Below are positions 7,851 through 28,542 of a stretch of DNA of 64,000 bases, piece by piece. Origin of the DNA: an uncultured Gammaproteobacteria bacterium (GTDB lineage: Bacteria > Patescibacteriota > Microgenomatia > Levybacterales > GWA1-39-11); assembly GCA_964485575.1 (NCBI GenBank), contig CAZAJO010000005.1, forward strand, positions 1,389 through 65,388, given 5' to 3'. Within the stretch, counting starts at the first letter, position 1; each line of letters starts with the position of its first letter. The notes below the pieces were generated by a model. The model had not been told where the DNA came from. It saw only the letters and a list, made by a program, of their open reading frames with translations, and ran no database searches. A program made the translations under genes and the position numbers.

Positions 7851-9298
7851 TTATACACATCCCCAGCTCCAATTGTGAGTATTATGTACTCACTAGAGCT
7901 GAAGTTTTGGTCTAAGTATTCTATCACATCATCAAATTTTTCTTTGTATATGACGTCAACATTTTCGGAAAAAGCATCCACTAATTCTTTTTCAGAAATA
8001 GTATCACCCTCCGTATCTCTAGCAGATTTAAATATTGGCAGAAGCACTAACTTCTCAACTCCACTAAATGACATTGCAAAATCAGAAAGTAACGCTTTTG
8101 TCCTTGAGAATGTATGGGGCTGAAAAACACATACCAATTTTTTTTCTGGGTAACTTTTTTTGATGGATGAAATAGTCGTTACTATCTCCAATGGATGATG
8201 ACCATAATCATCTATAAGAAGTGCTCCATGAGGGGTAGTTCCAATTATTTCTGTCCTTCTTTTCGTACCGGTAAAAACCTTTAGCGCTTGACGGATTTTT
8301 TGATATTCATAACCTAATTCTGAAAGCAGAGCAACAACTGACATTGCATTTTTCGCGTTATGTATTCCTGAAATAGATAGCTCAAATAACCCCATCTCAC
8401 GTCCTTTTTTGTGAACTGTAAATTTAGTAGACAGACCAAAAGAAACAATTTTTGATATGACATAGTCATTCTCAACACCCTGACCATAAGAGACTACTGA
8501 AATGTCTTTTGTGATCTTGTCTTTAAAGGAAGACAAATATGTATCGTCACCATTTACAAACAATTTGCCACCACTTCTGATGTTGTCTGCAAGTTCCAAA
8601 AAAGCACCAACAATCTCGTCAGTGTCTTTGAAAAGGTCCGGATGATCAAAATCTATATTATTAAAGATTGCGTATCTTGGGGCAAGATAAAGGAATTTCG
8701 GAACCCGGTCATGCACGGGCTCTGAGGCATATTCATCGGCTTCTGCGATAAAATAGTCCCCACTCCCAAAATGTCCCGGGGCGGCTGAAGGAAACACCTC
8801 ACCGGTACCCACGCTGTATGAAGGGTCCAAATCTAGCGATGCCATGGTCGTTGCAAGAAGGGAAGAGATGGTGGTTTTTCCATGGGACCCTGCAACGGCA
8901 ATCCCCTGTATATTTTTGCCAAAAATATCACCTTTCATAAATATTGATAAAGCTTGCCCTTGAGAAAGAATTGCTATCTTGTTCTCCCGTGCCCACACAA
9001 CTTGTGGATTATCAAACCCCTTGTGTGCCCCTGTTGTCACGACTAGACAAAGAGCTTTTGATGTATCACTAAAAAAACTTTGGATCGAAGAAACGTCAAA
9101 CCCGGAAGACACAGCAATTTCTTTTTTTGCCAACCATACGCCTGTTATAAATTCCTCCTCAACATCAGATCCACTAACTGCAAATCCTGCCTCTTTTGCA
9201 ATAATGGCAAGCGGAGCCATCCCCACACCTTTGACTCCTACAAAGAATATTTTTTTTATTTTCTCAGGAACTCTCAACTCTTGAGTCTTATATTTCAT
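7826..9298 (-). CDS. murC: UDP-N-acetylmuramate--L-alanine ligase MurC
   Basis: N-terminal FVGVKGVGMAPLAIIAKEAGFAVSGSD, matching the MurC (HFIGIGGxGMSxLA) signature; Mur ligase central GSHGKTT P-loop. Confidence 0.8.
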   Translation of the reverse strand: MKYKTQELRVPEKIKKIFFVGVKGVGMAPLAIIAKEAGFAVSGSDVEEEFITGVWLAKKEIAVSSGFDVSSIQSFFSDTSKALCLVVTTGAHKGFDNPQVVWARENKIAILSQGQALSIFMKGDIFGKNIQGIAVAGSHGKTTISSLLATTMASLDLDPSYSVGTGEVFPSAAPGHFGSGDYFIAEADEYASEPVHDRVPKFLYLAPRYAIFNNIDFDHPDLFKDTDEIVGAFLELADNIRSGGKLFVNGDDTYLSSFKDKITKDISVVSYGQGVENDYVISKIVSFGLSTKFTVHKKGREMGLFELSISGIHNAKNAMSVVALLSELGYEYQKIRQALKVFTGTKRRTEIIGTTPHGALLIDDYGHHPLEIVTTISSIKKSYPEKKLVCVFQPHTFSRTKALLSDFAMSFSGVEKLVLLPIFKSARDTEGDTISEKELVDAFSENVDVIYKEKFDDVIEYLDQNFSSSEYIILTIGAGDVYKVSYGLKS

Positions 9299-9308
9299 AA
9301 TTGTATTT

Positions 9309-9342
9309 TGTTAACGGGTTTTAACTTTTTAACTCATTAACC
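9309..9342. repeat. GTTAAC-rich intergenic repeat element, copy B (murC/murE spacer, half-length)
   Basis: Reads gttaacgggttttaactttttaactcattaac, which matches the core of copy A. Confidence 0.6.
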
Positions 9343-10560
9343 TTTTAACATCTCTTTCACCACTTCTTGGTCGCTCCAGGCAACCTCCCCACTACCATAA
9401 TTCATTGATTTTTCGTGCCCCTTACCTGTAATTATCACTGAATCCTTTTGTCCGGCAATTGATATGGCAAATTCGATAGCTTTTTTCCGGTCGTCTATCT
9501 CATATACTGTTTTTCCTTCTAAGTGACCTTCTTCAGTTTCATTCAGAAATTCGTTACTAATGCCATCCTTTATTTGCCTATTTATATCCTCAACTTTTTC
9601 AGACCGGGGATCCTCAGACGTCAAAATAATGATGTCATCATAAAATGAGGCGACTTTGCCCATCTCAGGTCTTTTTCCACTGTCCCGAAGCCCGGCAGCA
9701 CCAAAGACATGGATAAGCTTTCCCTCGGTTCTTTTGCGTATTTCAGGCAAAATATTTTCAAATGAATTTGCGGTATGCGCAAAATCAACCATAATAAGAG
9801 GTCCTTTTGAGCTACCTATGACTTCTTGTCTACCATTTGGAGCTTCAAAGCTTTGGACAGCACTATCAATCGTCAATGGATCTATCCCAAGAGCAATGCA
9901 TGCAGCAGCGGACGCAATAATATTTTCAAGATTAAAGTCTCCGATAAGGTTTGTCTTTATCTGAAAGGGTAGATTGATCATTGAAAGATCATCGTCATTA
10001 TTGCCATGAAGCGAATAACTGATCATCTTTTCTTTTGGAAGTACTTTTTGGACTTCAGAAAACCACTGACCATTACTGTTGACTATCGCAAGATCAGATC
10101 TTTTAAGAAGTCTTAACTTTGTCCGAACATAATTCATGTAGTCTTTGTGATAATCCAAATGCTCGTGAGTAATATTTGTCAGAACCCCTATATTAAATTT
10201 CACTCCCCATACCCTATTTTGATCAAGAGCGTGAGACGTCACTTCAAGTACGATATGGGTGCATCCCATCTTTTTTGCGAGGCGGATATATTTTTGAATA
10301 GCAAATGGAGAAGGGGTCGTTACATGAAACCCGGTGTCGTATGCCTTCCCATCTATTATCGCTCCTATTGTTGAGATAACAGCAGCTTTTTTCCCCGCAG
10401 TACGCAAAATATGATAAATCAGATTTGAAGTAGTCGTCTTTCCATCTGTTCCCGTGACACCTATTACCGTAAGGCCCTTTGAGGGAAACCTGTTATAAAT
10501 GGTTGCTGTCAAAGCTTGTGCCAGGTGTCCCGTATTTTTTATTTTTCTGATGGTGGACAT
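9337..10560 (-). CDS. murE: UDP-N-acetylmuramoyl-tripeptide ligase MurE-like Mur ligase
   Basis: VIGVTGTDGKTTT P-loop, a VDFAHT motif and Mur ligase domain order. Assignment as MurE rather than MurF rests on the position and the DxAH motif, so it is inference. Confidence 0.7.
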   Translation of the reverse strand: MSTIRKIKNTGHLAQALTATIYNRFPSKGLTVIGVTGTDGKTTTSNLIYHILRTAGKKAAVISTIGAIIDGKAYDTGFHVTTPSPFAIQKYIRLAKKMGCTHIVLEVTSHALDQNRVWGVKFNIGVLTNITHEHLDYHKDYMNYVRTKLRLLKRSDLAIVNSNGQWFSEVQKVLPKEKMISYSLHGNNDDDLSMINLPFQIKTNLIGDFNLENIIASAAACIALGIDPLTIDSAVQSFEAPNGRQEVIGSSKGPLIMVDFAHTANSFENILPEIRKRTEGKLIHVFGAAGLRDSGKRPEMGKVASFYDDIIILTSEDPRSEKVEDINRQIKDGISNEFLNETEEGHLEGKTVYEIDDRKKAIEFAISIAGQKDSVIITGKGHEKSMNYGSGEVAWSDQEVVKEMLKG

Positions 10561-10579
10561 GTTTTAATTATACTAGTTC

Positions 10580-12265
10580 TCACTTGGATGGCTCAATGTT
10601 GTAGTACTGGATGATATCCCGGGCTATGGCAAAGAATGTTGGCGCTGCGGTCTCTGCACCATAAATTGAGGATTGAGGTCTGTTGACTATGACAAGCATT
10701 GTGATCTGGGGGTCCTCAGCAGGAAAAAAACCTACAAAGGAAGCGTTTGTGTTGGTGGGATCGTAATGTCCGGCAACCGGGATCTGAGCAGTACCAGTTT
10801 TTCCTGCGATATGATAATTTGGGATTTTCGCAAATTTTGCTTCTCCATTTTCAACAGCATTTACCATCATCCAGGTCATCACTTTTGCGGTGGCACTTGA
10901 AATCACTTGTTTTTCAACCTGTGGCTCAACATTTATGGTCTTGCCATCTGGAGTTAAGATCTTCTCAACAACCATTGGTTTCATCAATTTTCCTCCGTTT
11001 GCGATGGCGTTGACAGAAGCAAGAAGCTGAATTGGGGTTATTGAAATTCCTTGGCCAAAACTTGCAGTCATAAGATCAATATCTTTCCATTTCCTTGGAG
11101 AACGAAGCTCTTCAGTTACTTCTCCTTGGATGTCGATTCCTGTCAGTGTACCTATTCCAAAATTCTTGAGGTAGGTAAGGAACCGGTCTATCCCTAATTT
11201 TTTGGCTACAAATACCATGCCCGTGTTGTCCGAGTGCTGGATCACCTGGGTCATATTTATATTTGGTATATATTCATCATTCCATGTCTTTATCGAAAAT
11301 CCGTCTTGCTCTATAGGACCTGCACAGTCGTCACATCTGGTGTCCGGGGTAACCAATCCACTATCTATTCCTGCTGCCATGACAAGCACTTTAAAGGTAG
11401 AACCGGGCTCGTAAAGGTTTGAGACGATGGGGCTTGTGTAGTATTTACCGTCGTATTCCCAATATTTTTGTGGATCAAATTTTGGATAAGATGAAGCCGC
11501 CAAAACTTTTCCGGTCTTTGTCTGCATGATAATAACTGTCGCCCCCTCTGCCCCATATCTCTCAAGACCCTTTTTGAGCTCAGTATCTGCCATGTATTGG
11601 ATGGAGCGGTCGATGCTTGTGACGAGGTTCCTGCCATCTATCTTTTTGTCCTCACGAATTTCTGTAAGTATAGGATTGCCCACAGCATCTTTTATAAGAT
11701 ACGTACTTCCTGGTCTTCCGCGAAGCTGTCTGTCATAAAATCCCTCTATCCCAAAATATCCTTGATCCTCACCATCCTGATTTTTGCCTACAAACCCTAC
11801 TAAGTGTGCGGCAAGTGATGCCTCGGGATAATTTCTTTCTGTCTGCTGCTCGAACCCTAACGCATTAAGCTTTAGTGCCTCAATCTGCTTCCTTTGGTCG
11901 TATGAAAGTCTGCTTTGAAGACTCACCCAATATAAGTTTTCTGAAAGTCTGGCGGATATTGATGCTGCGTCTACAGCAAGAACAGGAGATAGTAATTTTG
12001 AATATGAATCCGTTGAATCCACTTTTTTTGGATTGGCGTAGAGAAGATAGCTTATCTTGTTTGTGGCCAGTGGAAAGTTGTCATGGAACAAAATGTCTCC
12101 TCTTTTTGCGGTTGTTACAAGTGACAAAGAACTTTGATCGCGTCCAGCAAGGCGCAATCCCTCTGCTTTTACCACCTGCCAGTAAAACAATTTAAATAAT
12201 ATGGCGATGTAAAAAAGGGCAAATGCTAGAAAGATTGTGATGAGACGTTTTTGGTCTCTTTTCAT
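10580..12265 (-). CDS. ftsI: Penicillin-binding protein transpeptidase FtsI (class B PBP)
   Basis: N-terminal TM helix plus the transpeptidase motifs STFK, SDN and KTG. Confidence 0.85.
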   Translation of the reverse strand: MKRDQKRLITIFLAFALFYIAILFKLFYWQVVKAEGLRLAGRDQSSLSLVTTAKRGDILFHDNFPLATNKISYLLYANPKKVDSTDSYSKLLSPVLAVDAASISARLSENLYWVSLQSRLSYDQRKQIEALKLNALGFEQQTERNYPEASLAAHLVGFVGKNQDGEDQGYFGIEGFYDRQLRGRPGSTYLIKDAVGNPILTEIREDKKIDGRNLVTSIDRSIQYMADTELKKGLERYGAEGATVIIMQTKTGKVLAASSYPKFDPQKYWEYDGKYYTSPIVSNLYEPGSTFKVLVMAAGIDSGLVTPDTRCDDCAGPIEQDGFSIKTWNDEYIPNINMTQVIQHSDNTGMVFVAKKLGIDRFLTYLKNFGIGTLTGIDIQGEVTEELRSPRKWKDIDLMTASFGQGISITPIQLLASVNAIANGGKLMKPMVVEKILTPDGKTINVEPQVEKQVISSATAKVMTWMMVNAVENGEAKFAKIPNYHIAGKTGTAQIPVAGHYDPTNTNASFVGFFPAEDPQITMLVIVNRPQSSIYGAETAAPTFFAIARDIIQYYNIEPSK

Positions 12266-12546
12266 TGGTTATAAGAAAGCTTAACCTGACGAAGTGAAAT
12301 ATAACTCTGATTTGATACAAATCCCAACTGAGCGGCTTTTTGCGAAATTGCTTCAAAAGACGTTTGATCAAGTACCTTTGAATTGAGGATTTGGTTCTCT
12401 TCGTCAAGAGCTGCTATTCTTGACTGCAAATTCTTTACAGATACGCTATCTGAAGCGAGTTTGCTTGAAAGATGGATATTGAGGAGTTCTAAACCAACTG
12501 CAGAAACAGCTAATAAAATTACGATAATTGTTAATAATTTGTTCAT
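12262..12546 (-). CDS. FtsL-like small bitopic cell division protein
   Basis: 94 aa with an N-terminal TM helix and a coiled-coil tail, between rsmH and ftsI. Confidence 0.45.
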   Translation of the reverse strand: MNKLLTIIVILLAVSAVGLELLNIHLSSKLASDSVSVKNLQSRIAALDEENQILNSKVLDQTSFEAISQKAAQLGFVSNQSYISLRQVKLSYNQ

Positions 12547-12605
12547 AGTTAGTTTACATAAAACTTCAAACTTAAAACTTTTAATTCTTTTTTAAAGTTT
12601 TTGGT

Positions 12606-13487
12606 TTATATTTTCTCAAAAATTCTCATTTTTGCGCTTCTGGCGCGTTTGTTTCCGGTTACTTCATTGTCATCTGCAACAAGTGGTTTTTTGGTGACGA
12701 CTATTCCCACCCCTTGCCTTTTTAAGGTCTCAAACATCTGCTTGATGACCCTATCTTCGAGTGAATGAAAGCTTATCGCAACAAGTCTAGCCTGTGGTAA
12801 AAGCATTTCAACTGCATCACTCACACCTTTTTTGATGACTCCAATCTCATTGTTGACCTCGATTCTTATTGCTTGAAAGATTTTTGTCGCTGGATGGATA
12901 GGGCCATCCTTATGAGAAATCTTCTCGCATATCTCCTTCAACTCTTTTGTCGTTCTTATCTCAGTTTTTCTCCTTTTCTCAACTATTGCGTCGGCTATCT
13001 CTTTTGCATTGTGCTCTTCACCGTATGTGTAAAAAATTTCAATAAGCTTGTCCTTCGGGTAGGAATTTACTACATCCAAAGCCGAAAGCGTAGCATCCAT
13101 GTCCATCCGCATATCCAACTCTTCATCGCGTCTAATACTAAATCCTCGTCCTGAGTTGTCCAGTTGGTATGACGATACTCCAAAGTCAAAAAGTATCCCG
13201 TCTACCTTCTCAAACCCATTTTCTTTTGCAATTCTTTTGATGTCTTCAAAATTTCCCTTTACAATTTTTAGCTTTTCAGTTTTAAGTTTTTCGTTTTGTG
13301 TTTGTTTAACAAACTCAATTGCGTCTGCGTCTTGGTCAATCCCAAGGACTATTCCTCCTTTTTGAAGAATAAGTCCAGTATGTCCTCCTCCACCCAATGT
13401 CGCGTCTATATAGTGCTTACCATCCGTTACGTTGAGACCATCAACTGCTTCTTCCAAAAGAACCGGTATATGGTTAAATTGCTTCAT
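12606..13487 (-). CDS. rsmH: 16S rRNA (cytosine1402-N4)-methyltransferase RsmH (MraW)
   Basis: HIPVLLEEAVDGL... DATLGGGGHT SAM-binding signature. Confidence 0.9.
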   Translation of the reverse strand: MKQFNHIPVLLEEAVDGLNVTDGKHYIDATLGGGGHTGLILQKGGIVLGIDQDADAIEFVKQTQNEKLKTEKLKIVKGNFEDIKRIAKENGFEKVDGILFDFGVSSYQLDNSGRGFSIRRDEELDMRMDMDATLSALDVVNSYPKDKLIEIFYTYGEEHNAKEIADAIVEKRRKTEIRTTKELKEICEKISHKDGPIHPATKIFQAIRIEVNNEIGVIKKGVSDAVEMLLPQARLVAISFHSLEDRVIKQMFETLKRQGVGIVVTKKPLVADDNEVTGNKRARSAKMRIFEKI

Positions 13488-17990: not shown

Positions 17991-18596
17991 GTGTATACTC
18001 AATTTGTGAGAAATATTGAGGAAAATATCATCATGCATCTTAAGGCGTTTTTCTTTCCTCTTCTTTTTAAATTTGTCAAAACAGAAAATTTCTTGGAATA
18101 CCACATAGGTAATTTTTTTGATCGACCGAAAAAGAGAAAAAACACAGAAACCGATGAGCAGTATCTTGGAAGACTTACGCCTAGTCAAGCCGTTAGAATT
18201 TCTCAATACAATTACAATAAATGGTATTACAATAATGCTTCGTATCATGTCGTTCCACCTGATTTGAGCAATTGGGAAGAAGAAAGCAGAAAGACTCTTG
18301 AAAAGCTATTGGATGCACTATTTCTTATTGAGGAGCAATGGAAAGATCTTTATAGAAAATCACTTGATAGAAAAATTGTTGAACTAAAAAAGCCCAAAAA
18401 GAATAAAGGTCTTGAAATCAAAAGCACAATCCTGACTTTTTTACTTGGATGGGTGTTTATATTTATTGGAGGAATAATAATCATGTTTGTTGTGATGGGA
18501 TTTAACCACCTACTTCTTGCCCTTCACATCCCCATCATAAAAGAAGTACCAATTTTTGGTACAAAAATGGAAATCCCTCCCCCACCTAAAAGATAA
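17991..18596 (+). CDS. Hypothetical membrane-anchored protein
   Basis: 201 aa with a C-terminal TM helix and a Pro-rich tail. Confidence 0.4.
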   Translation: MYTQFVRNIEENIIMHLKAFFFPLLFKFVKTENFLEYHIGNFFDRPKKRKNTETDEQYLGRLTPSQAVRISQYNYNKWYYNNASYHVVPPDLSNWEEESRKTLEKLLDALFLIEEQWKDLYRKSLDRKIVELKKPKKNKGLEIKSTILTFLLGWVFIFIGGIIIMFVVMGFNHLLLALHIPIIKEVPIFGTKMEIPPPPKR

Positions 18597-18637
18597 AATT
18601 GGAGATCAATCGGAAAATTTGAAAAAAAAAGAATAAT

Positions 18638-19096
18638 TTAGCAGGAAATTTCGAGGGCTTGCACTCCATTAAATTCCTCATAACCCTCAGTGAGCCTTTT
18701 ATTATTTGCTTCTTTAACAAAGTTAAGTAAAATTCCAGTACCCCAAACTTCTTCATTTTCTCTAACTTGTTTCCTCAACTCTTGTATATATCTTTTTACC
18801 TGAACTGGAAATTCCTCCTTGATACCTGGCTCCGCCTTTAACTCTACGATAACAGCAGTTTTACGTCCATCATTTTTAAGCCAAACTACAAGATCTGGCC
18901 TAACGTCCCCAATGATATGTCCACTGTACGTTATTGGTAATGGCCTTTCGGTCTCATACATAATTCCTTTATCTCGAAGGGCTGTTTCCATGGCGTTGTG
19001 ATAAATCCCTTCAAGCCACCCCGGACCAAGCTCGGTCATGATTGACGAAGCGCACTCTTTTAAAGTAGCTATTAATTGTCCAACTTGCTCTTCCAT
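18638..19096 (-). CDS. GxxExxY protein (PD-(D/E)XK nuclease superfamily)
   Basis: Contains GWLEGIY, which fits the family-defining GxxExxY signature, at the usual N-terminal position; 152 aa. Confidence 0.7.
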   Translation of the reverse strand: MEEQVGQLIATLKECASSIMTELGPGWLEGIYHNAMETALRDKGIMYETERPLPITYSGHIIGDVRPDLVVWLKNDGRKTAVIVELKAEPGIKEEFPVQVKRYIQELRKQVRENEEVWGTGILLNFVKEANNKRLTEGYEEFNGVQALEISC

Positions 19097-19133
19097 AATT
19101 ATATTGTAACTCTATAACATCTTCTCCTCAATA

Positions 19134-20060
19134 TTATTTATCAGGGGCTGCATCATATGATTCCTTAACAATTGGAAAAACATAATTCAAATCTTTAGGG
19201 TTACTTATCTCAACCCACCACAAAGGAGTTTTACCCCAAGCATATGATGCTGGGATTTTTGTAAATCTTTTTTCCTTGTCATTTATTACTTCTTTTCTAA
19301 CAGTGATTCTAAGCTTTTCTTTAAAAAAATGGATAGCAACAAAGTTGTACCAGCTTACTTTGTAGCCGATGTAATTTCCTACCGGCTTTTCCTGAATTTT
19401 ACTATCTAAACCAAAAATTTGTTCACGCAGTTCCTGGAATAAGTCCTGAATATTTTTAGATGACTTTTTTAAATGGTCCTCAACAGTATAGGTTACGATT
19501 TCCTTTGCTGCAGTTCCTGTAAGACTACTCGATGATTTTTTCTCAAGCTTTTTATCACCACCTATTGGATTTATTTGGTCGTACTCAATAAGTCCTCCCT
19601 CGTATATGCCCACTTCCCACAACTCGAAAGGCAAATTAGGTGAGAGTGCTCTTTTTTGATAGGTACTAAATTTGGGACCGATGAACATTACTCGTGTCTG
19701 TCCCCAGTCGACATTTTTCTTGTCTATTGTCTTCCCAGTTTTTGTAATATATTCAAGCAAAACATCGGCCTTATGATCCAATACTAAATTAAGATAAGTC
19801 TGTCCTTGGTCCATCAACGAGAAATTTTCAACCTTCTTGTATTCGATAATTACAAAAGAATTGATAGCGGTATCAAAAGCAAGAGAATCGAGCCAAAAGG
19901 ACTCTATATTAAATTCTGTTGCTATAAATTCTAGACCGAAAAGTTCTTGTAAATTGTACTCAGTAAAATTCTGAAGTTCTTTTTCTTTTTTGAAATGAGA
20001 ATCAAACCCAACTTCTCGGACAGGTGTTAACTTTTTCCCATTTATTTTAAATAAAGCCAT
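19134..20060 (-). CDS. PD-(D/E)XK restriction-endonuclease-fold protein with C-terminal DUF4268-like domain
   Basis: N-terminal D...IIEYKK matches the D-(D/E)xK core motif; 308 aa. The family assignment of the C-terminal half is from memory. Confidence 0.5.
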   Translation of the reverse strand: MALFKINGKKLTPVREVGFDSHFKKEKELQNFTEYNLQELFGLEFIATEFNIESFWLDSLAFDTAINSFVIIEYKKVENFSLMDQGQTYLNLVLDHKADVLLEYITKTGKTIDKKNVDWGQTRVMFIGPKFSTYQKRALSPNLPFELWEVGIYEGGLIEYDQINPIGGDKKLEKKSSSSLTGTAAKEIVTYTVEDHLKKSSKNIQDLFQELREQIFGLDSKIQEKPVGNYIGYKVSWYNFVAIHFFKEKLRITVRKEVINDKEKRFTKIPASYAWGKTPLWWVEISNPKDLNYVFPIVKESYDAAPDK

Positions 20061-20369
20061 TTGAGGTGAATTATATTTGAGTGTAAGCTCAAATACAAGC
20101 TATATGCTTATACGCTCAGTTCAAAACAAAAGCAATTGAGGCCAAACTATAAGTCAAATAAAATATCACTAAACTCAATAGCCTAGGGTATATATGCTTA
20201 TAGGATATTAGCTAGATAGAAGAATACAAAGCCATTTGATCTTCGTTGGCTTTTTTTACAATTTCTTTCAACATTTTCTTTTTCTCGTCGGCCTTTGACA
20301 AGACAAAAAATCTAGAAAAATCTGTAGTAGGAATAAACGATTTTTTCTTTAAAAAGCTAAATACCATAG

Positions 20370-21065
20370 TTAATCTAACAATTTTTCGAGTTCAATTGTA
20401 GTATACATCCTCTTGATATAATAATCAACCTTATCCTTATTAAGTTCTAGGGCATCGAGATTTTGTTGAAAATTTTTTACTACAATGTTAAGTTTAATCT
20501 TATTTCCATAGAGTTTCTTTGCATTATTAACATTATCTATTGATTTAATATAGGCCTTTATAAAAACTTTTTTAGGAACGTTTCTGAACTCTTTCAATTC
20601 CCTTTTCTTTGTATAAGCCCAAGAAAGTAATGGATCCTGATATAGAAAATAAATTTCTACGTTCCTATTATGCTTGAGGGAATGATCAATATTCCCCAAT
20701 GCATCATTATATGCAAAAGTTCCATCAAGGATTATATTCAATCCCATTTTACATGCATAGTCATAAAGAATATTTACTCCTTTAGTTGCCGCCTTTTGGA
20801 AAATATATGCTTTTTTTCCTTTATAACCACTTACGAATTTTCTTATTTCATCAGCGTCAATAATTACAGGCTTTTCCTTAAATGATTCAGCAAGTCTTCG
20901 AGAAAACTCAGTTTTTCCTGCTCCTGGTGAGCCGGCCATGAAAATTGTAGTAGGATAACTATCTGTTGGGGTATTCTCTGGAACAAATTTTTTAATTAGA
21001 TCTTTTCTGTGATCTTTTATCCACAAGTGGGCATCTTCACTTTCTTTTAATTCGTGTTCTTCCAT
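20370..21065 (-). CDS. Zeta-toxin family P-loop kinase (PezT/zeta-like)
   Basis: Walker A MAGSPGAGKT near the N-terminus, at zeta-toxin-like length (231 aa) and with similar downstream motif spacing. Confidence 0.6.
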   Translation of the reverse strand: MEEHELKESEDAHLWIKDHRKDLIKKFVPENTPTDSYPTTIFMAGSPGAGKTEFSRRLAESFKEKPVIIDADEIRKFVSGYKGKKAYIFQKAATKGVNILYDYACKMGLNIILDGTFAYNDALGNIDHSLKHNRNVEIYFLYQDPLLSWAYTKKRELKEFRNVPKKVFIKAYIKSIDNVNNAKKLYGNKIKLNIVVKNFQQNLDALELNKDKVDYYIKRMYTTIELEKLLD

Positions 21066-21131
21066 AGCTTCATTTTACAAAGATAGTTAGCAAATTGCTA
21101 TTTAACATAAATTCTATTACGTCGTTAATAC

Positions 21132-22106
21132 TTAACTTACTACATCAATAAAATGTATTTGTTTATTTTTTCCCCAGTCCATAATTTTTACATACCTACC
21201 ATTGTGTTTTGTTGGGTGATTTAATTTACAACCCTCACATTCATATTTTTCAACTTTATCTGGGGTTTCCCAAAAAAGAGTTTTTTCACCTATTGTAACC
21301 TTTGTTTCGTGATGACAGCTCATGGGTATGACATATTTAAGGCCGTCCATCTGAAATATATTCCAGCTTATAATTTCAGCAAATTCTTCCAGCACATAAA
21401 GAGGTGGTCGTCTATTAAATTTAGCTTTATAGTGATCAATGAGTGTATAAAGTAGATTTTCGCGAGCAATTAAAATATTGTCACCTTGCCATTCGTAACC
21501 ATAGGAACTCTGATATGCAACTTTTGCCCACTTAATCCATTCTTTTGGCTTTTTACAGTATTTAGAAACGTAATGAAGCTTCTTGTCGAGAAAACCAACC
21601 CGGTTCTCAATCTTTATAACTGCTCCATGAGCAATTGGATTGTACCGACTTACTATAAAAGGCGCCTCACCACAAGCAATTTCAAGTTTTATTTCAGCAA
21701 CATAACTTTGCCAATTGGTTTCAGTTACTGAATTCTCATCAACCAATTTATTCATTTGGTCAATAATATGAAGTGGAGTGAACACTTCTCCCTTTTCTCT
21801 TGTACGAAAGCGCTGCTCTTCGCGGCTTTTAACAGCACGAGGCTGAATCAGCTTGCCATTAAGTCCAGTCACCAATTCAGGTTTTATCTGATTTTTTTTT
21901 GAAAACTCTTTACCGTATTTTTCGTAAGAATCAGTTGCCCAGATAATGTTCTTTTTTGTGGTCCTATCAATAAGAAGAATATCTAGAAGCTTGCCTTTCC
22001 GTCGAAGCGTGTTTTCAAGGATGTCAGCATTTTTTTCCGGTGCCATGTTATTCCACGGCTTTGACATGTGTTTCGATGAATTGAATTTCTTTCTCATCAA
22101 GTCCAT
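21132..22106 (-). CDS. Methyltransferase-like protein (gamma-class N6-MTase motifs X and I only, no NPPY) with C-terminal Cys/His Zn-ribbon-like cluster
   Basis: Contains GEVFTPLHIIDQM (motif X) and LEIACGEAPFIV (motif I), then a C-terminal CHH...CEGC cluster. It lacks (D/N)PP(Y/F/W). The true start is probably the ATG at 22046 (MAPEK), 1 nt after the stop of the upstream giant gene. Confidence 0.5.
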   Translation of the reverse strand: MDLMRKKFNSSKHMSKPWNNMAPEKNADILENTLRRKGKLLDILLIDRTTKKNIIWATDSYEKYGKEFSKKNQIKPELVTGLNGKLIQPRAVKSREEQRFRTREKGEVFTPLHIIDQMNKLVDENSVTETNWQSYVAEIKLEIACGEAPFIVSRYNPIAHGAVIKIENRVGFLDKKLHYVSKYCKKPKEWIKWAKVAYQSSYGYEWQGDNILIARENLLYTLIDHYKAKFNRRPPLYVLEEFAEIISWNIFQMDGLKYVIPMSCHHETKVTIGEKTLFWETPDKVEKYECEGCKLNHPTKHNGRYVKIMDWGKNKQIHFIDVVS

Positions 22107-25100
22107 ACTTTTTATAAAGCTGTCTGTCTATATCTGCGATGGATTTGGTCCAATCGATATCTGAATCAGATGTAAAGTCTTGGATAGGTATATATATCCA
22201 TTTTGATGGTGGGTTATCTTGCGTAATCTTTAGCACACCTAACAAGCACCTTAATAATTTTGTTTTGATATATTTTGCAGCATTAATTGCCTCAATTTCT
22301 TTATCAAAAGCCCCAATACTTATGAATGTCGGTGTAGCTGAATCTGATGGTCCACCAACTACCGGTTTACTCAAAATTTCACCAAAGGAACCACTACCGT
22401 TTGCCTTGGGAATAAAAATCTTCCATTTGCCTAGATTATTTTTTTGAGGATAGCGCGGAACCATAAATTTTTTCTCTATCCATCGCCATACTCTTTCTCC
22501 CCGATATAAGCCTAAAATTCTATAGTAATCACTTGAGTTGCTAGGATTTTGCTTCTTGAAAACATCAGTTAAGGATTCAAAAGTTGATGACTTCAATTCG
22601 TATTCTTCATTTGGTCCAAGCTCTGTGACCTCCGGGTGCTTTGCTTGAATATTCAAAAGTCGATCTTTTTTGGAATTTGGATATTCTTTTAGAAATTCTT
22701 CGTTAAATTTCAGGTCTGATCTTCCCCCAAGCATGATTGATGAAAGATTATTTTCACTGCCAGGATTGACCTTTGAAATTATTATTCTTAAATTTGCGTC
22801 TGGAATAAATTTCTTGATAGCACCAAAATTCTTGTTTTCGTCATAATAAATAATAGCTACTCCTCCTTTTATATCAGTGTTCGGAAACACTTCTTTTGAA
22901 TTTGGGTTGTAATACTGAACTTTTAAATGAGCATTATTCAGCATCTTTAAATTCCATAGCTCAGGCGTTAATCCTGCATTAAAAAGGAAGCGAGCAGGAG
23001 AAATTATGCAGTATTTTTTACTAATTCTCTCCGCTAAATCATAAAAATATTGGTAAATAGGTTCTTGTCGATTGTATCCATCGGAAGATACCTGATATGG
23101 GGGGTTCCCAACAACAACGTCAAATTTCATATTTTTGTCTTCATTAAATTTAACTAATAATTCTTCTTCTGTATTCGTTATTCCTTGCCTTAATTTCTTT
23201 ACTAGATCTTCTATATATACAACATTCATCCTCGCACCACCATATCCAGCTAGCGTACGACGGGTTATCATTTGAGCCATTGGACTTTTACAGAGCACGA
23301 AAATATTGTCTGATAGAACTTTATTCCAAAGTTGTCTAGATATTTTGTCCTCAGGATTTTTGGCCTTTCTTAACTGCCTTGAATATATGTTATAGGTCGC
23401 AAGTAAGGGATAGAGCCCTGATTTTGAATTTATCTCAAGTATTTTAGTGTCGTCTTGTGACCAAATCTCTGTAGCCTCACCTTGAATTTTCCATTCTGGC
23501 TTTCCTGATTGATCAATAATTCCACCACGGAAGTCATGACCACCCAAAGTCATAACCATTTGCATATTTACAACATTCCATGGAGTGAGTACTGTCTCCT
23601 TATCTGGATTCTTGAAAGTTGCGAATATCTCAGCTATCGCCTGTATTCGTTCAGTTGGCAAAAGATCATCGCAGTCATAAGTTTTTGCTCGAATGCTGCG
23701 GGTAACACCACGAAATACTTCTTCATCATAATATTTAATGAAGCTTCGGAACAAATCTTTACTTAGTCCTGCCGGCATAAATTCTTTCCATGATTCTTCA
23801 TCAACAAGATCAATAAAATCTTGCAGGGTAATATCTTTATGAAGAGAAACATTAGCTCCATAGACCATCATTGGCATACGTATACTAACGGCTCGCAAGA
23901 TACTAATGGCACTCCTTTTTTGCTCTCGTGCTTCCTTGAGTTTTCTTAGCGCTTCTTTCTCTTCTTCTGATAGTTCTCTTTTTTGTTTCTTTCGTTCTTC
24001 TTCCTCGGCTTTTTGTATTTCAAGATCTGTCATTCCAAGACTATTAACCTCAATCTCGTTAATACGTTCATTTGTACTTGAACCAATAATGGCTTTCAAT
24101 TTATTAAAATTATTGATCGCTAATTCATCCAATTTAAGTAGCTCATCATTGTACAGTTTGGGGTCATCAAACCCATTGCGACTTACACGATCAATAATCG
24201 CCTTCTTAAGCTGATTAAGCATCGAGCCTACATCGTAAGGCTTCATAGATCCTCCTTCTGCTGCAAGAATAGGACAGAAATTAAGAAATTGGCTCATTGC
24301 GTCTTTTTGCTCAGGTGTATTTGTCTTGCCTGATTTATGATTTAGCTCTATAGCTTCGGCAATTAGCTTAAGAGTGCGGTCAGGAGCAAAATCGAACACA
24401 TACCCTTGGGTCTTAAGCTTTCCGTCAATTTTTGCTGGTGTTTGACATCGAAATGCAGTCTGTAAGTAAGCAGTAGCAGAGCTTGTATCTGACATCATAA
24501 AGACTGCTGTCCATTCCGGAATCGATGCACCTGTGGTCAGACGCTGACCCGTAAGTGTAATTGTGTACTCATTGGCCTTTATAGCATTTGTCACTCGCTC
24601 TTTTGCATCCTTATCTTCCTCGTCAACATGATTATTTCCTGAAATGTTTACTATTCCGAACTGACCAAAAATTGGGTGTTCTTTGAGCAACTTCTCCATA
24701 GCTTCAATAACTTTAACTCGATTAGGCAATAGCCACAAAGAGTGCTTATTGTAGTTACGGTATTCTTCTGTTGCATATGGAAACTTTGTTTGGAGTGTAT
24801 TGTCCACTAGTAAATCCAAGAATTTATTAACCATCTCTTCATGAACAAACTCTGCAACATCATTACCTTCATCGTCTTTATGTACTCGAAAAAATTCATG
24901 GAATTTGAAAGCACCATCTAGTGCATCTTTAAATTCAGTACCAAGACTTCCGATGTGACTTGCATATTTATCAATATCATAAGTAAACATGCTAAGAGCC
25001 GGTAATTCAGCATAGGGATTTGGCTTACCAGGATGATGCACGTCCCAGAAGAACTTCTCTTCCTGCTCCATCACATAATCCCAAGTATAAATATCTCTTT

Positions 25101-26073
25101 CTTCGTGCTTATGTAAAATATTAAATGGTGTACCTGAAAGTTGAAGAGTGAAGTTTCTTGGAATTTTTTCAAAAGTAGCTTCTCCTAGGATGCTTTGAGT
25201 ACCTTCATGAGCCTCATCTACGATAAGCATATCCCAAGTTGCATCGAAGACTTCATCGTTTTTATCAAATCCTCGCGCACCTGAATGAGCTGCTTCATCT
25301 ACAACAACTCTTTTGGAAAGACGTAAATCTTGTAATGAAGCAAAATAAATAAAAGGCTTATCACCTTTAACAAGTGTGCTAATATTTTCACCCTTAGTTC
25401 TGGATGAATATTCGTAATTTGTGCCTTCAAATACTTTATTAAAGTCGTCATACCAGTCTACACTTACGCTCGGACGATGCGTAACGATGAGCACCTTTTT
25501 CATCTCATTATCTTTGGCTACCTGCATAGCAGCTGATGTTTTACCAAAGCGCATTTTGGCATTCCAGAGAAAATGTTTACGATTTTGCTTGATTGCCTTG
25601 GTGGTTTTTTCTATAGCATCAAGTTGATTAGGTCTGAAGACAAATTCTCCATGCTTTTCATTTATTCTTTCTTCGGTATTAAGAGAAATCCGGCCTTCTC
25701 TAGCAGCGTTTATTGCATTTTTTGCTACATCAAGACTGATTTCAAACCATTCAGAATGATAATTTTTTGTATTTTCTGATTTTCGCTGGAAACCTGAACG
25801 CATCAATATTCGATGCACGGGTTTATCAACATCTTCAGGCTTATTGCCTGGAGTGGTTAAGATTTCAGCCAATAGTAATTTGTATGCCACGTCAGCTGTC
25901 TTTGTCTGTTGCTCGATGCGTTTTCTTGCAGCTTTTTCTATGGCTTCTTTTGAATTTATTGTTGTCGTTGCAGCACCAATCTTGAGCCGTCCCTTGTGAC
26001 TTCCGTCCCCAATGGTATAAACGTAAATGACTCCGTAGGAGAAAGTCTCATGAATTACATGTTGATTATCCAT
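22048..26073 (-). CDS. T5orf172 (GIY-YIG-like) - SF2 helicase - N6-adenine DNA methyltransferase - C-terminal target-recognition-like fusion protein; Type ISP-like single-chain restriction-modification candidate
   Basis: The N-terminus has YVYTIGD...GRLKIGAATT...HSEWFEI, a T5orf172/MUG113 signature. The helicase part has motif I RFGKTSAA, motif II LIVDEAH and motif III LSGTP. The MTase part has motif X VLTPWNVVNMQMV, motif I ILEINSKSGLY and motif IV VVVGNPPYQ. A roughly 340-aa C-terminal region would act as the target recognition domain. Confidence 0.7.
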   Translation of the reverse strand: MDNQHVIHETFSYGVIYVYTIGDGSHKGRLKIGAATTTINSKEAIEKAARKRIEQQTKTADVAYKLLLAEILTTPGNKPEDVDKPVHRILMRSGFQRKSENTKNYHSEWFEISLDVAKNAINAAREGRISLNTEERINEKHGEFVFRPNQLDAIEKTTKAIKQNRKHFLWNAKMRFGKTSAAMQVAKDNEMKKVLIVTHRPSVSVDWYDDFNKVFEGTNYEYSSRTKGENISTLVKGDKPFIYFASLQDLRLSKRVVVDEAAHSGARGFDKNDEVFDATWDMLIVDEAHEGTQSILGEATFEKIPRNFTLQLSGTPFNILHKHEERDIYTWDYVMEQEEKFFWDVHHPGKPNPYAELPALSMFTYDIDKYASHIGSLGTEFKDALDGAFKFHEFFRVHKDDEGNDVAEFVHEEMVNKFLDLLVDNTLQTKFPYATEEYRNYNKHSLWLLPNRVKVIEAMEKLLKEHPIFGQFGIVNISGNNHVDEEDKDAKERVTNAIKANEYTITLTGQRLTTGASIPEWTAVFMMSDTSSATAYLQTAFRCQTPAKIDGKLKTQGYVFDFAPDRTLKLIAEAIELNHKSGKTNTPEQKDAMSQFLNFCPILAAEGGSMKPYDVGSMLNQLKKAIIDRVSRNGFDDPKLYNDELLKLDELAINNFNKLKAIIGSSTNERINEIEVNSLGMTDLEIQKAEEEERKKQKRELSEEEKEALRKLKEAREQKRSAISILRAVSIRMPMMVYGANVSLHKDITLQDFIDLVDEESWKEFMPAGLSKDLFRSFIKYYDEEVFRGVTRSIRAKTYDCDDLLPTERIQAIAEIFATFKNPDKETVLTPWNVVNMQMVMTLGGHDFRGGIIDQSGKPEWKIQGEATEIWSQDDTKILEINSKSGLYPLLATYNIYSRQLRKAKNPEDKISRQLWNKVLSDNIFVLCKSPMAQMITRRTLAGYGGARMNVVYIEDLVKKLRQGITNTEEELLVKFNEDKNMKFDVVVGNPPYQVSSDGYNRQEPIYQYFYDLAERISKKYCIISPARFLFNAGLTPELWNLKMLNNAHLKVQYYNPNSKEVFPNTDIKGGVAIIYYDENKNFGAIKKFIPDANLRIIISKVNPGSENNLSSIMLGGRSDLKFNEEFLKEYPNSKKDRLLNIQAKHPEVTELGPNEEYELKSSTFESLTDVFKKQNPSNSSDYYRILGLYRGERVWRWIEKKFMVPRYPQKNNLGKWKIFIPKANGSGSFGEILSKPVVGGPSDSATPTFISIGAFDKEIEAINAAKYIKTKLLRCLLGVLKITQDNPPSKWIYIPIQDFTSDSDIDWTKSIADIDRQLYKKYGLDEKEIQFIETHVKAVE

Positions 26074-26092
26074 AAAATAACTTCTTGAGGGT

Positions 26093-26098
26093 ATTCTA
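26093..26098 (-). promoter_or_regulatory. Extended -10 element (TGgTAGAAT) upstream of the giant RM-like gene
   Basis: On the minus strand, TGGTAGAAT lies 20 nt upstream of the ATG at 26073, with an A-tract further upstream. The same TGGTA(C/G)AAT architecture recurs at 26722-26730 and 27412-27420. Confidence 0.4.
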
Positions 26099-26179
26099 CC
26101 ACTCTTGAGGCTGAAATGCTATTTTTTGAGGATTCTCGATTCTTCTATAATTATAACTCTATTAACAAATGCTGCACTT

Positions 26180-26434
26180 CTATGTGTGACATAAAAATCC
26201 CAAAGACCACCAATAACAATGACCAGAAAAAATATCAACAAACCACTTAACTATATATATCCAATAATTAATGGTCCAAAGAACAATGGATAGTACCACA
26301 ATTATCCCTATGATGTTTCTTCCAAGATTCTGCATTTTTTGGGAAGATTTTATTTCGGTACTTTTTTCTAATTCATCTTTAATTACTTTGGGTAAATCTG
26401 GATAAGTCATAAAAGTTTTTATATGAGAATTCAA
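26180..26434 (-). CDS. Small hypothetical membrane protein
   Basis: 84 aa with one TM helix; coding status uncertain. Confidence 0.3.
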   Translation of the reverse strand: MNSHIKTFMTYPDLPKVIKDELEKSTEIKSSQKMQNLGRNIIGIIVVLSIVLWTINYWIYIVKWFVDIFSGHCYWWSLGFLCHT

Positions 26435-26670
26435 ATATCATTTTTTTGTTCAAACATTTTTAAGAGCAGGGGTTCTGAAATGGCTACCGTTACTGCTCCT
26501 CCAAAAAAACTCCCTGTAATTTCCTTAATGATTAATCCGATAATTAAGGCTACTATAGTAGCAATTATTATGCCAAATTTTTTATACTTCTGTTTTGATG
26601 TTGATTGGGAATCGTTTTTTCTCCTTCTTTTTCGAAGCAGATAAAAAATGAAAGTAACAGGAAGAAGCAT
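26431..26670 (-). CDS. Small hypothetical membrane protein
   Basis: 79 aa with a basic N-terminus and one TM helix. Confidence 0.3.
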   Translation of the reverse strand: MLLPVTFIFYLLRKRRRKNDSQSTSKQKYKKFGIIIATIVALIIGLIIKEITGSFFGGAVTVAISEPLLLKMFEQKNDI

Positions 26671-26796
26671 AATAATTAGAAAGAAAATCGAAGTAAAAAT
26701 ATCAAATAAAAATTTTATGTCTATACCAAAATTGTACCACTAGACAAGTGCGAAGCAAGGAGAGGTTTTCTGAGGCTGGATTGCTAATAATTTTAC

Positions 26797-27411
26797 CTAA
26801 TCGACTTTGAGGTATTTGTCATCCGAAAGGCCTGCGCTTCGGCGGAGCTCGTATAGTCTTCCAAATTGAAAAAGGATTTCATTCTTTTTCTGATGGTAAC
26901 TTGCTATAGCATCTGATAACACCTCGGGGTTATTTTGCCAAATAGACGAATCTGTCACAATATCCATATCTTGTTGTTGAAGATAAAAAAGACGAGAAAT
27001 ATCTTGATACCCATCTATTACCTGCCTGTATTCCAATTCTCTTTTAGTGTCGGTAGGAGCCTGCGTGCTATTTGCCGAAGTTGCAGATCCGGCTATTACT
27101 CCAAAAAGAAATATTCCAAAAATTGCAGAAGCGCCCCAAATTACTCTAGGAATTGCTGACAATATGCGTATGGGATATTTTTTTAATCCCAGTACTCGAA
27201 TTCCAATTGAAGTGTGAGAGAACCATCTATATATTGCCTTACGCTTAAAAAATATTACTGTACCTCCAACAAAATAAAGAAAGAGAAAGAAGTTGGAAGG
27301 ATTCTGGTATATAAATACATAAAAAAGAAGAACAGAAAGACCCAAAATTGAATAAGCTAGTAACCGTATCCTGTCGTGAAAGTAACTCTTTTTTCTGCCT
27401 GCCATACTCAA
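26797..27411 (-). CDS. Hypothetical polytopic membrane protein
   Basis: 204 aa with 3-4 TM helices. The likely ATG start at 27405 is 6 nt after a TGGTACAAT -10 element, so the mRNA may be leaderless. Confidence 0.4.
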   Translation of the reverse strand: MSMAGRKKSYFHDRIRLLAYSILGLSVLLFYVFIYQNPSNFFLFLYFVGGTVIFFKRKAIYRWFSHTSIGIRVLGLKKYPIRILSAIPRVIWGASAIFGIFLFGVIAGSATSANSTQAPTDTKRELEYRQVIDGYQDISRLFYLQQQDMDIVTDSSIWQNNPEVLSDAIASYHQKKNEILFQFGRLYELRRSAGLSDDKYLKVD

Positions 27412-27534
27412 ATTGTACCACCTGACACTAGCATAACAAGGAGAATTTTTTTGAGGGTGGGATGGTTTTGTTGTTAAATTTTTTAAATAAGACTAAACTT
27501 ATTATGTGCTTATTCACGGGAAGGGGGTGAATAT

Positions 27535-28542
27535 ATGAAAAAAATAATTGGATTTTTTGCGATTTTTGTTTGCTTACTCACTTTTGTTACCACATCATTT
27601 GCTGATAACAATGAGCATCGGGTGAACCGAGATAACTGGCACGACAACGATGACCACAATGAAAGCAAATGGAAAATTGCTTCTTCATGTGAGATCACTT
27701 ACACGCTAGACAATGTCGGCTATACTCACACTTACGCTCTTACCAATGGTAATAACGGTGCTTTTTCAGGAACAGGAAGTTACAATCCTGACCCTTCATA
27801 CACCGAAACAATTACTGGAAATGTAACGGGCAACGCTGTCACGTTCCATGTCCTCTACACTGGTACAAGTGCAGGTTATACGCTTGATGCAACTGGGGCA
27901 GTTAGTAATACCGGAGTAATTTCCGGTACTGCAACAGATAGTCTTTCACGCTCATTCACTTTTGCAAGCACAGCTTCATGTGCTACAAAGGGAGGTGATG
28001 ACCATCACAATTTGCGACTTGATTGGAGACGTGAGTTGACAGCTTCAAAGTGTAACGCTGTTGGTAGACCTATTGTTAACGTTAGACAAAAGGTCAAAAA
28101 CGACGCAGACTCAGGCTTTGCAGGATATTGGGCAATGGACCAATATACAAGAGAGATAACTGTCTACAAAACTGCAACAGTCGGAACGTATTGCGCGACC
28201 GTAGCGTATGACGGAAAGTTTGTGTCATTTGCAGGCGCGAGCCCAAATAACACAGGGACAATTGCAGCAGGTATAAAGGGAGAAATGAATGGTGGATATA
28301 GATCTACTCTATTTACGGGTACATTACTTGCTACCCCTTTATGGCCAACACATGGAAATGTTGGTACGACTGACTACAATTGCGATAACTTAGGAAATTG
28401 TCCTGGTCGAATCGACTGGACAACAAAGTATTTCTCAACTACATCAGGATTTGAGCTTGCATGGTGGGGTTGGATATACAACACTCAGCATCATGGAACA
28501 TGGATAAATGCCATTTCCGGAAGTGTGGGAGATATTCTTTAA
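27535..28542 (+). CDS. Secreted Thr/Gly-rich hypothetical protein
   Basis: Signal peptide MKKIIGFFAIFVCLLTFVTTSFA; 335 aa, Cys-containing and extracellular-like in composition. Confidence 0.5.
   Translation: MKKIIGFFAIFVCLLTFVTTSFADNNEHRVNRDNWHDNDDHNESKWKIASSCEITYTLDNVGYTHTYALTNGNNGAFSGTGSYNPDPSYTETITGNVTGNAVTFHVLYTGTSAGYTLDATGAVSNTGVISGTATDSLSRSFTFASTASCATKGGDDHHNLRLDWRRELTASKCNAVGRPIVNVRQKVKNDADSGFAGYWAMDQYTREITVYKTATVGTYCATVAYDGKFVSFAGASPNNTGTIAAGIKGEMNGGYRSTLFTGTLLATPLWPTHGNVGTTDYNCDNLGNCPGRIDWTTKYFSTTSGFELAWWGWIYNTQHHGTWINAISGSVGDIL

Follow-up and report, generated by a model that had tools for sequence, protein, structure and literature searches.

A small, widespread companion of helicase-methyltransferase restriction genes as a possible detached half of a split adenine methyltransferase

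What might a protein with only part of a methyltransferase signature do beside a giant restriction-like gene? The question is raised by a 64,000-nucleotide stretch of a Patescibacteria contig (CAZAJO010000005.1; hereafter the window), where a small minus-strand gene of 304 amino acids (aa) directly follows a gene of 1341 aa whose product combines a T5orf172 domain, a superfamily 2 (SF2) helicase, a linker and a gamma-class adenine methyltransferase. We refer to the 304-aa protein as the module, to the large protein's own methyltransferase N-half as N', and to its NPPY-bearing catalytic and recognition half as the C-half. A sequence-only reading of the window had taken the small protein for a catalytically degenerate methyltransferase ending in a Cys/His cluster, had suggested that it acts as a sensor, a specificity subunit or a regulatory subunit, and had called its pairing with the giant gene unusual.

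We propose that, in a restriction enzyme of Type ISP-like design, a gamma-class adenine methyltransferase may well be split, with the module as its detached S-adenosylmethionine (AdoMet)-binding half. The module would be an obligate subunit of this restriction-modification enzyme, carrying motifs X and I, probably also II and III, and ending in a CCCH zinc ribbon, while the large chain would contribute a T5orf172 nuclease-like domain, an SF2 motor, a linker, a partly degenerate N' and the NPPY half with its recognition region. We infer that the module binds AdoMet, associates with the NPPY half of the large protein and is needed for methylation of host DNA, supplying or completing the AdoMet pocket, and that helicase, nuclease and N' would drive ATP-dependent restriction of unmethylated DNA.

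The first line of evidence is genetic linkage. We surveyed 80 species-level genome loci, scoring all open reading frames (ORFs) with profiles of the module and of five large-protein segments. Leaving aside six loci whose flank is too short to tell, 73 of the 74 informative loci carry a T5orf172-helicase-Eco57I methyltransferase gene beside the module: it is adjacent within 100 nt in 63 of them, lies within 3.5 kb with defence-island genes inserted (a 23S-IVP protein; a DUF4062/HATPase_c_4/Fic-like_C gene) in nine, and is farther away in one. A single locus (L033) has no partner. Given this frequency, we regard the pairing as the defining context of the family, and with about 6,000 clusters at 90% identity it is the rule, not the oddity it had been taken for; in the informative loci, homologues are linked to helicase-methyltransferase fusions nearly throughout, L033 being the exception.

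The coupling of the two genes in the window is as tight as first supposed. The letters at the junction read GTC AAA GCC GTG GAA TAA (stop codon, 22050-22048), C (22047) and ATG (22046-22044), so that the 1-nt spacer is real, and junctions of the same kind (1-5 nt) are found in relatives. The ORF listed for the gene (21132-22106, 324 aa) is the maximal one; we took ATG 22046 as the start because conservation in the homologue alignment sets in at 'DILEN', because relatives in which the module comes first begin at the equivalent methionine, and because the first 20 codons of the longer ORF overlap the end of the 1341-aa gene. This is the start codon that the sequence-only reading had favoured, and the junction letters bear out its distance from the stop codon.

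The family is large and broadly distributed. An exhaustive search of 50%-identity representatives yielded 1,677 module clusters, and 6,060 homologues are present among 90%-identity clusters; the best 120 of these are 67-100% identical to the module and come mostly from Patescibacteria-like metagenomes. Overall, members occur in Patescibacteria, Proteobacteria, Bacteroidota, Firmicutes, spirochaetes, an archaeon and phages. We found no model or match for the module in Pfam, NCBIfam or PHROGs. The only model that matches it is the REBASE-derived PADLOC profile PDLC03390 'MTase_II' (E 3.2e-93), in two stretches of which the best covers residues 109-301 (profile positions 135-321 of 327); the free NPPY half has a separate REBASE-derived PADLOC model, PDLC03375. 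The gene itself is not new, as databases already carry the family as a putative 'M' gene, and the few names attached to homologues include 'restriction endonuclease subunit M' and 'type II restriction enzyme'. A literature search returned no paper on this family or architecture, on the split or on the presence of two N-halves.

What the module retains of a methyltransferase lies at its N-terminal side (Table 1). Its motif X fits the gamma-class pattern xxFTPxxhhxxM and is placed upstream of motif I, and among 87 non-identical relatives, over which residue conservation was computed, E87, T90, E122, C125, G126, E127 and P129 are invariant or nearly so. Motif I (LE122IACG126EAPF130) is invariant and offers an acidic residue ending beta-1, a glycine loop and an aromatic residue. 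The (near-)invariant blocks of the family comprise EVFTP, L-E-I-x-C-G-E-A-P-(F/Y), R134-Y135, R149-x-G-x-x-D154-x-K156, Y-G-(Y/F)-(E/D)-W-Q-G-D and W-N-I-x-Q-M-D-G. We assigned the last two tentatively to motifs II and III, on the basis of their residue pattern and of the points at which Pfam Eco57I alignments start in two fused relatives. In these (two of four examined) the alignment starts inside the module: in P0147 it opens at 'VYGFEWQGD' (profile position 3, beta-2 in the large protein of the window), and in P0130 at 'ISWNLWQMDG' (profile position 24, beta-3 in the same protein). Another register, in which a non-significant hhalign maximum-accuracy (MAC) alignment sets WQGD on motif III, was also obtained.

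At its C-terminal side the module has a zinc-ribbon-like cluster. Four putative ligands (C244, C270-x-x-C273 and H281) are kept in about 95% of relatives, and the region is modelled by AlphaFold2 (AF2) as beta hairpins with a short helix, at a predicted local distance difference test score (pLDDT) of ~71-84; no significant Pfam zinc-ribbon match to the module was found. The CHH...CEGC...H cluster described earlier therefore stands in its Cys and last His positions (82-83 of 87 relatives), whereas H245 and H246 are not conserved.

However, we could not find catalytic motif IV, (D/N/S)PP(Y/F/W), either in the window module or in 35 of 36 diverse stand-alone members scanned with the pattern [DNS]PP[YFWH]. 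The one member that does have it (P0216) is only part of a fused protein, and no true stand-alone member has the motif. The string 'RRPPLY' (residues 211-216) was considered as a decayed NPPY and rejected, being unconserved (consensus GRRPSL) and located between two helices. Motifs V-VIII and a target-recognition domain are likewise absent from the module, which ends in the zinc ribbon at residue 304; these elements sit instead in residues 965-1341 of the neighbouring gene product. The presence of motifs X and I and the lack of a catalytic motif, both noted in the sequence-only reading, are thus upheld, and a closer look brought no overlooked NPPY-type motif to light. A derivation from methyltransferases fits motifs X and I, but the module is not a full-length enzyme with a decayed site, since motifs IV-VIII and the recognition domain are missing altogether. 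For the same reasons it is most improbable that the module is an autonomous Type II methyltransferase, as its strong PADLOC MTase_II match and the source name 'restriction endonuclease subunit M' would have it.

The missing half is found next door, and the ways in which the parts are joined or separated suggest how they may fit together. The large gene precedes the module in the window's Patescibacteria and gammaproteobacterial clade, and follows it in Firmicutes, Bacteroidota, spirochaetes and a methanogen-related archaeon. Many relatives, 630-720 aa long, are fusions in which some six residues link the whole module, zinc ribbon included, to MKFDFVIGNPPYQ...; this C-half ('MKFDxxxGNPPYQ...') is homologous to residues 965-1341 of the large protein (E 2e-56), and the fused proteins hold no other N-half. 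Beside the fused form we found, in four of four cases examined, a T5orf172-helicase-linker-N' protein of ~1115 aa that ends right after motif III and lacks NPPY (N' motifs: X NQIFTPK, I FADLYMKSG, II VYGLAPTE, III LRQADSL). A three-gene layout consists of the module, a free C-half (~345 aa) and a helicase-N' protein; in L081 the order is module, N'-C-half and then helicase; and in P0205 the module is joined to the N-terminus of the helicase chain. From these fusions and fissions it follows that the system always consists of three pieces, namely the module, a helicase-bound N' and a C-half starting exactly at beta-4, and the beta-3/beta-4 boundary is, to judge from the sequences, its natural seam.

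Some loci depart from these layouts. On a Bifidobacterium longum plasmid (NZ_CP065398; L011, 7878-11406) an IS256 transposase lies between a module part and an NPPY part, which were probably once a fused module-C-half gene. In L112 and 14 similar IMG/VR loci (9012-12985) two ORFs that overlap by one base, one of 1079 aa and one of 244 aa from the C-half, replace the single large gene, an arrangement that could reflect a frameshift or a phase-variable break within the C-half. A divergent module variant of ~245 aa, matched only in part by the module profile, precedes free C-half genes in L194 (7237-7980) and in L212, L213, L225 and L253 (7248-7985). Finally, in a Flavobacterium metagenome-assembled genome (L030, 426-9968) the module comes after another set of genes, for an MmeI-like Eco57I/TaqI_C methyltransferase (871 aa), a Schlafen AlbA_2/HATPase_c_4 protein, an SNF2-PLD helicase-nuclease (1120 aa) and a Bro-N protein, and the usual partner is not within the available flank.

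Phages commonly acquire the modification half of restriction systems, and five phage contexts carry the module and the NPPY half only, split or fused. In the Tenacibaculum jumbo phages PTm1 and PTm5, gp277, gp278 and gp279 are consecutive, with neither helicase nor N': gp277 (344 aa) is a free C-half that begins MKFDIIVGNPPYQ and matches PDLC03375 at 3.5e-114, gp278 is a helix-turn-helix protein, and gp279 (335 aa) corresponds to the module, with a PDLC03390 match at 6e-113 over profile positions 1-317. Fusobacterium phage FNU4 has a fused copy adjoining its integrase. Three IMG/VR contigs carry the pair or the fusion with no helicase within the available flanks, adjoining tail genes in L184, near a large terminase in L251, and beside a tRNA nucleotidyltransferase and another methyltransferase in L194. 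That phages keep module and C-half while dropping the helicase argues for a role of the module in methylation itself, rather than in sensing alone, and these sets are the strongest hint that the two may form a methylating unit.

A further indication comes from the large protein's own N-half. Contigs from giant virus metagenome-assembled genomes in IMG/VR (Nucleocytoviricota; L216-L250) encode helicase-adenine methyltransferase fusions of 1350-1530 aa that are homologous to the bacterial large protein in helicase, NPPY half and N-half, N' being the orthologue of their canonical N-half (hhalign E 1.8e-7 and 1.5e-14). The viral proteins keep motifs X (GEVFTP), I (DPAAGMGNF), II (LFMAE/LYMGE), III (YEGDTL) and NPPY, and we found no module within 8 kb of them. 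By contrast, N' of the module-associated systems falls into two deeply divergent classes, both without the acidic residue that ends beta-2: class 1, which includes the window, has motif II NIFVICKTP and motif I LEINSKSGLY, and class 2 has QVYGLAPT and FADLYMKSG, respectively. In the window itself, N' reads ETVLTPWNVVNM at motif X, ILEINSKSGLYP at motif I, NIFVLCKSP at motif II (no acidic residue) and VVYIEDL at motif III. The G-x-G loop is missing as well from N' of module-associated systems, whereas the module-free viral relatives keep both loop and acid; by this comparison, wherever a module is present, canonical features of AdoMet contact have been lost from the resident N-half.

Of the two sets of AdoMet-binding motifs, the more degenerate thus appears to be that of the giant protein's N' and not that of the module, which retains an invariant E122, E/D185 and D234. 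Gamma-class enzymes such as M.TaqI are the basis for reading such positions as AdoMet contacts, and by this analogy the three residues would contact AdoMet in the module. The description of the small protein as 'catalytically degenerate' is borne out in part: it has no catalytic motif, but its AdoMet motifs appear to be the better preserved of the two sets.

How the parts diverge relative to one another was examined through identities to the window system and through pairwise identities across 83 systems. Identity to the window module remains at 66-70% even where the helicase has fallen to 32% and N' to 17-20%, and the C-half may be anywhere between 18% and 73% identical, regardless of the rest. 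Across the 83 systems, helicase and N' change together (r 0.94), and three segments of the C-half are correlated among themselves (r 0.63-0.73). On this pattern the C-half acts as an exchangeable cassette and the module as a constant component. A separate small subunit adjoining a methyltransferase does recall HsdS or BcgI-B, and a zinc ribbon could bind DNA; yet a specificity (target-recognition) subunit, one of the roles proposed earlier, would hardly be expected to match the helicase in conservation, to lack any variable block and to stand with the best-conserved components of the system, when it is the NPPY/recognition half that varies, recombines and is swapped. We consider that role very unlikely.

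Immediately after the large gene, and in some cases on the other strand, extra C-half ORFs of ~265-324 aa occur in L132 (12405-14218), L140 (12933-13868; the same contig as L180, 9030-9965) and L143 (4993-5943). They look like silent cassettes that might switch specificity by recombination, by analogy with Type I hsdS shufflons.

A more elaborate and rather unlikely version of our proposal would have one catalytic/recognition cassette, from the beta-4 NPPY to the C-terminus, alternate between two AdoMet-binding halves, with the module acting in trans as the switch that decides how far the enzyme modifies and how far it restricts. Joined to N', which has lost the ribose-binding acid, the cassette would recognise its site without being able to methylate it, and the enzyme would translocate and cut; joined to the free module, with its intact AdoMet pocket, it would methylate. 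Phages with module and cassette would have taken the modification state only, and the cassette, which evolves independently and has silent or inverted copies beside some systems, would be the unit of specificity exchange.

The similarity of the module to methyltransferases exceeds chance as judged by profile comparison: its motif X aligns with that of the partner methyltransferase (hhalign E 0.005-0.007) and with that of the giant-virus relatives (profile-profile E 1e-3). Several results nevertheless weigh against a detached AdoMet-binding half. Past motif X, no significant profile similarity of the module to any methyltransferase N-half was found; hhalign comparisons of module and N' under several gap settings and alignment modes matched motif X alone, and motif I is placed on DPAAGMGNF only in a low-confidence MAC alignment. 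The module has no match among Pfam families, including a relaxed scan in which 37 members gave noise only, bar one fused fragment, nor among PDB sequences searched with the single protein and two profiles. Its AF2 model (pLDDT 72, predicted template modelling score, pTM, 0.75) consists largely of helices; it has only two or three strands, all short, including residues 120-123 and 181-184, and a C-terminus rich in hairpins; confidence is lowest in the invariant loops 127-132, 186-189 and 235-240, and Foldseek returned no PDB match to it. The model of a fused relative is too poor to interpret (pLDDT 64, pTM 0.40), and the module is not seen completing the fold in it. Module divergence, moreover, tracks the helicase (r 0.71) more than the catalytic segment (r 0.35). 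Lastly, N' directly precedes the NPPY half in canonical order, and the window large protein could therefore be a complete methyltransferase unaided, as its giant-virus relatives apparently are. Structure prediction thus did not confirm the Rossmann methyltransferase fold expected of the small protein; given the weak homology past motif X, the helical model and the lack of a Foldseek match, a Rossmann-half fold is plausible.

The main rival reading, which several of these results would suit, is that the module is a methyltransferase-derived remnant with no remaining part in the active site. It would be a non-catalytic accessory subunit that, by sensing AdoMet, by aiding assembly or coupling, or by clamping DNA with its zinc ribbon, regulates the switch between restriction and modification, while N' and the NPPY half form the working methyltransferase. 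These two are contiguous in the window and in most loci, the giant-virus relatives do without a module, the module co-varies with the helicase and not with the catalytic half, its model is not a recognisable Rossmann fold, and P0205 ties it to the helicase chain. We nonetheless hold this possible, if on the whole unlikely, reading to be the poorer account of the phage sets and fused proteins, where the module is the only N-half-like element alongside the NPPY half, of an N' that, unlike the N-half of module-free relatives, lacks the motif II acid and the G-x-G loop, and of the invariance of the module's putative AdoMet-contacting residues.

A nuclease subunit, as the Prokaryotic Genome Annotation Pipeline name 'restriction endonuclease' on plasmid relatives (RefSeq products of Enterococcus and Pediococcus plasmids) implies, is highly improbable. 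Many invariant acidic residues, D154-x-K156 and the Cys/His cluster might be read in its favour; the module, however, matches no nuclease family in Pfam, NCBIfam, PHROGs or PADLOC, its predicted structure is helical with neither a PD-(D/E)XK sheet nor an HNH core, the partner already has a T5orf172 nuclease-like domain, and phages that lack the helicase retain the module.

The closest characterised architecture is that of the Type ISP enzymes (LlaGI, LlaBIII), in which nuclease, SF2 helicase-like motor, linker, gamma-class adenine methyltransferase and recognition region succeed one another in one polypeptide (PMC3553950, PMC2790908). The large chain of the window has this domain order, with an SF2 ATPase and a gamma-class methyltransferase with recognition domain on one chain. 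It differs in that its nuclease domain is T5orf172-like (E 2.5e-5) rather than an N-terminal Mrr/PD-(D/E)XK domain, in that no sequence relationship to PDB chains is detectable, and in that the methyltransferase can be split at the beta-3/beta-4 boundary; in addition, the genetic linkage seen in 73 of 74 loci suggests a second conserved chain, the module. Eco57I/MmeI-type enzymes (IIG/IIL) resemble the system in that the NPPY half matches Pfam Eco57I and PADLOC REase_MTase_IIG, and the module shares motifs X and I with them; they have one contiguous X-I-II-III-IV-VIII domain and no helicase, whereas here there are two N-halves per catalytic half, one of them on a separate zinc-ribbon chain. 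Methyltransferases whose motifs are distributed over two polypeptides that must assemble are represented by M.AquI alpha/beta and M.EcoHK31I alpha/beta, which, unlike the window system, are C5-cytosine enzymes without motor, nuclease or redundant half-domain. In Type III enzymes only one of the Mod protomers is catalytic at a given site, and these protomers are identical full-length methyltransferases, while the second unit here is a half-domain of a different family. In general features, Type III (Mod2-Res) likewise combines an ATP-dependent motor-nuclease with more than one AdoMet-binding unit (PMC12707154).

If the module does supply the AdoMet half in trans, a very common family of helicase-linked restriction systems would be built unlike every characterised type, in three respects: the fold would be divided at the beta-3/beta-4 seam, every catalytic half would have two N-halves, and the catalytic/recognition half would be an exchangeable cassette. 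It would also open to experiment the question of how motor-driven restriction enzymes that modify a single strand strike a balance between self-methylation and cutting. The pipeline names 'restriction endonuclease', 'subunit M' and 'Type II methyltransferase' all misdescribe the module, and assigning methylomes to genes would, for these systems, need both genes.

Table 1. Location of the module, its partner and their parts in the window
Feature	Position	Strand	Basis
Module gene, 304 aa: methyltransferase N-half-like domain, then zinc ribbon	21132..22046 (stop codon included)	minus	ORF and translation
Gene junction: TAA of the 1341-aa gene, 1 nt, ATG of the module gene	22044..22050	minus	read directly
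Motif X, GEVFTPLHIIDQM, residues 86-98	21753..21791	minus	EVFTP in 85-86/87 relatives; aligns to motif X of partner and giant viruses
Motif I, LEIACGEAPFIV, residues 121-132	21651..21686	minus	conservation; 120-123 a predicted beta strand, then loop (AF2)
Candidate motif II, YGYEWQGDN, residues 182-190	21477..21503	minus	residue 185 E/D in 87/87; tentative
Candidate motif III, WNIFQMDGL, residues 228-236	21339..21365	minus	N229, Q232, M233, D234, G235 invariant; tentative
Zinc-ribbon-like CCCH cluster, C244, C270, C273, H281 (residues 244-283)	21198..21317	minus	ligands in 82-83/87
Partner gene, 1341 aa: T5orf172, SF2 helicase, linker, N', NPPY half with recognition region	22048..26073	minus	Pfam, PADLOC
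T5orf172 domain, residues 17-123, presumed nuclease	25705..26025	minus	Pfam PF10544, E 2.5e-5
SF2 helicase-like ATPase, ~residues 136-700	23974..25668	minus	Pfam ResIII, SWI2_SNF2, DEAD; phrog_16 DNA helicase
N' (own methyltransferase N-half)	23182..23673	minus	alignment, consensus; giant-virus N-half homology E 1.8e-7
C-half, residues 965-1341: beta-4 with NPPY, motifs V-VIII, conserved C-terminal helix	22051..23181	minus	homology to fused relatives and gp277

In the large protein of the window, Pfam ResIII matches residues 144-317 (1.5e-16) and Eco57I residues 923-1063 (1.5e-21), and NPPY occupies residues 990-993 (nt 23095-23106). The REBASE-derived PADLOC model REase_MTase_IIG (Type IIG) also matches it (E 1e-48). 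The T5orf172 domain, which we take to belong to the GIY-YIG clan, is kept at the N-terminus of most partners. Within the C-half, the conservation profile is weak at ~residues 1105-1205, which are likely to represent the recognition region. A PDB search with a profile of the partner's methyltransferase region retrieved nothing.

Around the operon, promoter and terminator scans performed no better than shuffles, and small ORFs upstream of the large gene were rejected as regulators, since they look like membrane peptides. Downstream of the module, on the same strand and after a gap of 66 nt, comes a Zeta-toxin/AAA_33 kinase-like gene (20370-21065; Pfam E 2.8e-33), with no evident epsilon-type antitoxin ORF; this neighbour is found in the window only, that is in one of 155 loci over which neighbouring genes were counted. 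A DUF5655 gene, matching the PADLOC candidate PDC-S18 (E 2.6e-84), is present in the window (19134-20060, minus strand), in L006 (3008-3895) and in L001 (3157-3990). Genes of this type stand beside the systems in 7 of the 155 loci and DUF4357 genes in 17, and at these frequencies all three neighbours were rejected as core parts, the DUF5655 and DUF4357 genes being regarded as occasional companions. GC content is 0.33-0.36 over positions 18000-28000, the defence-gene cluster, against ~0.40 in most of the remaining window, a dip consistent with a horizontally acquired island; the last 8 kb of the window are likewise low in GC (0.34-0.35).

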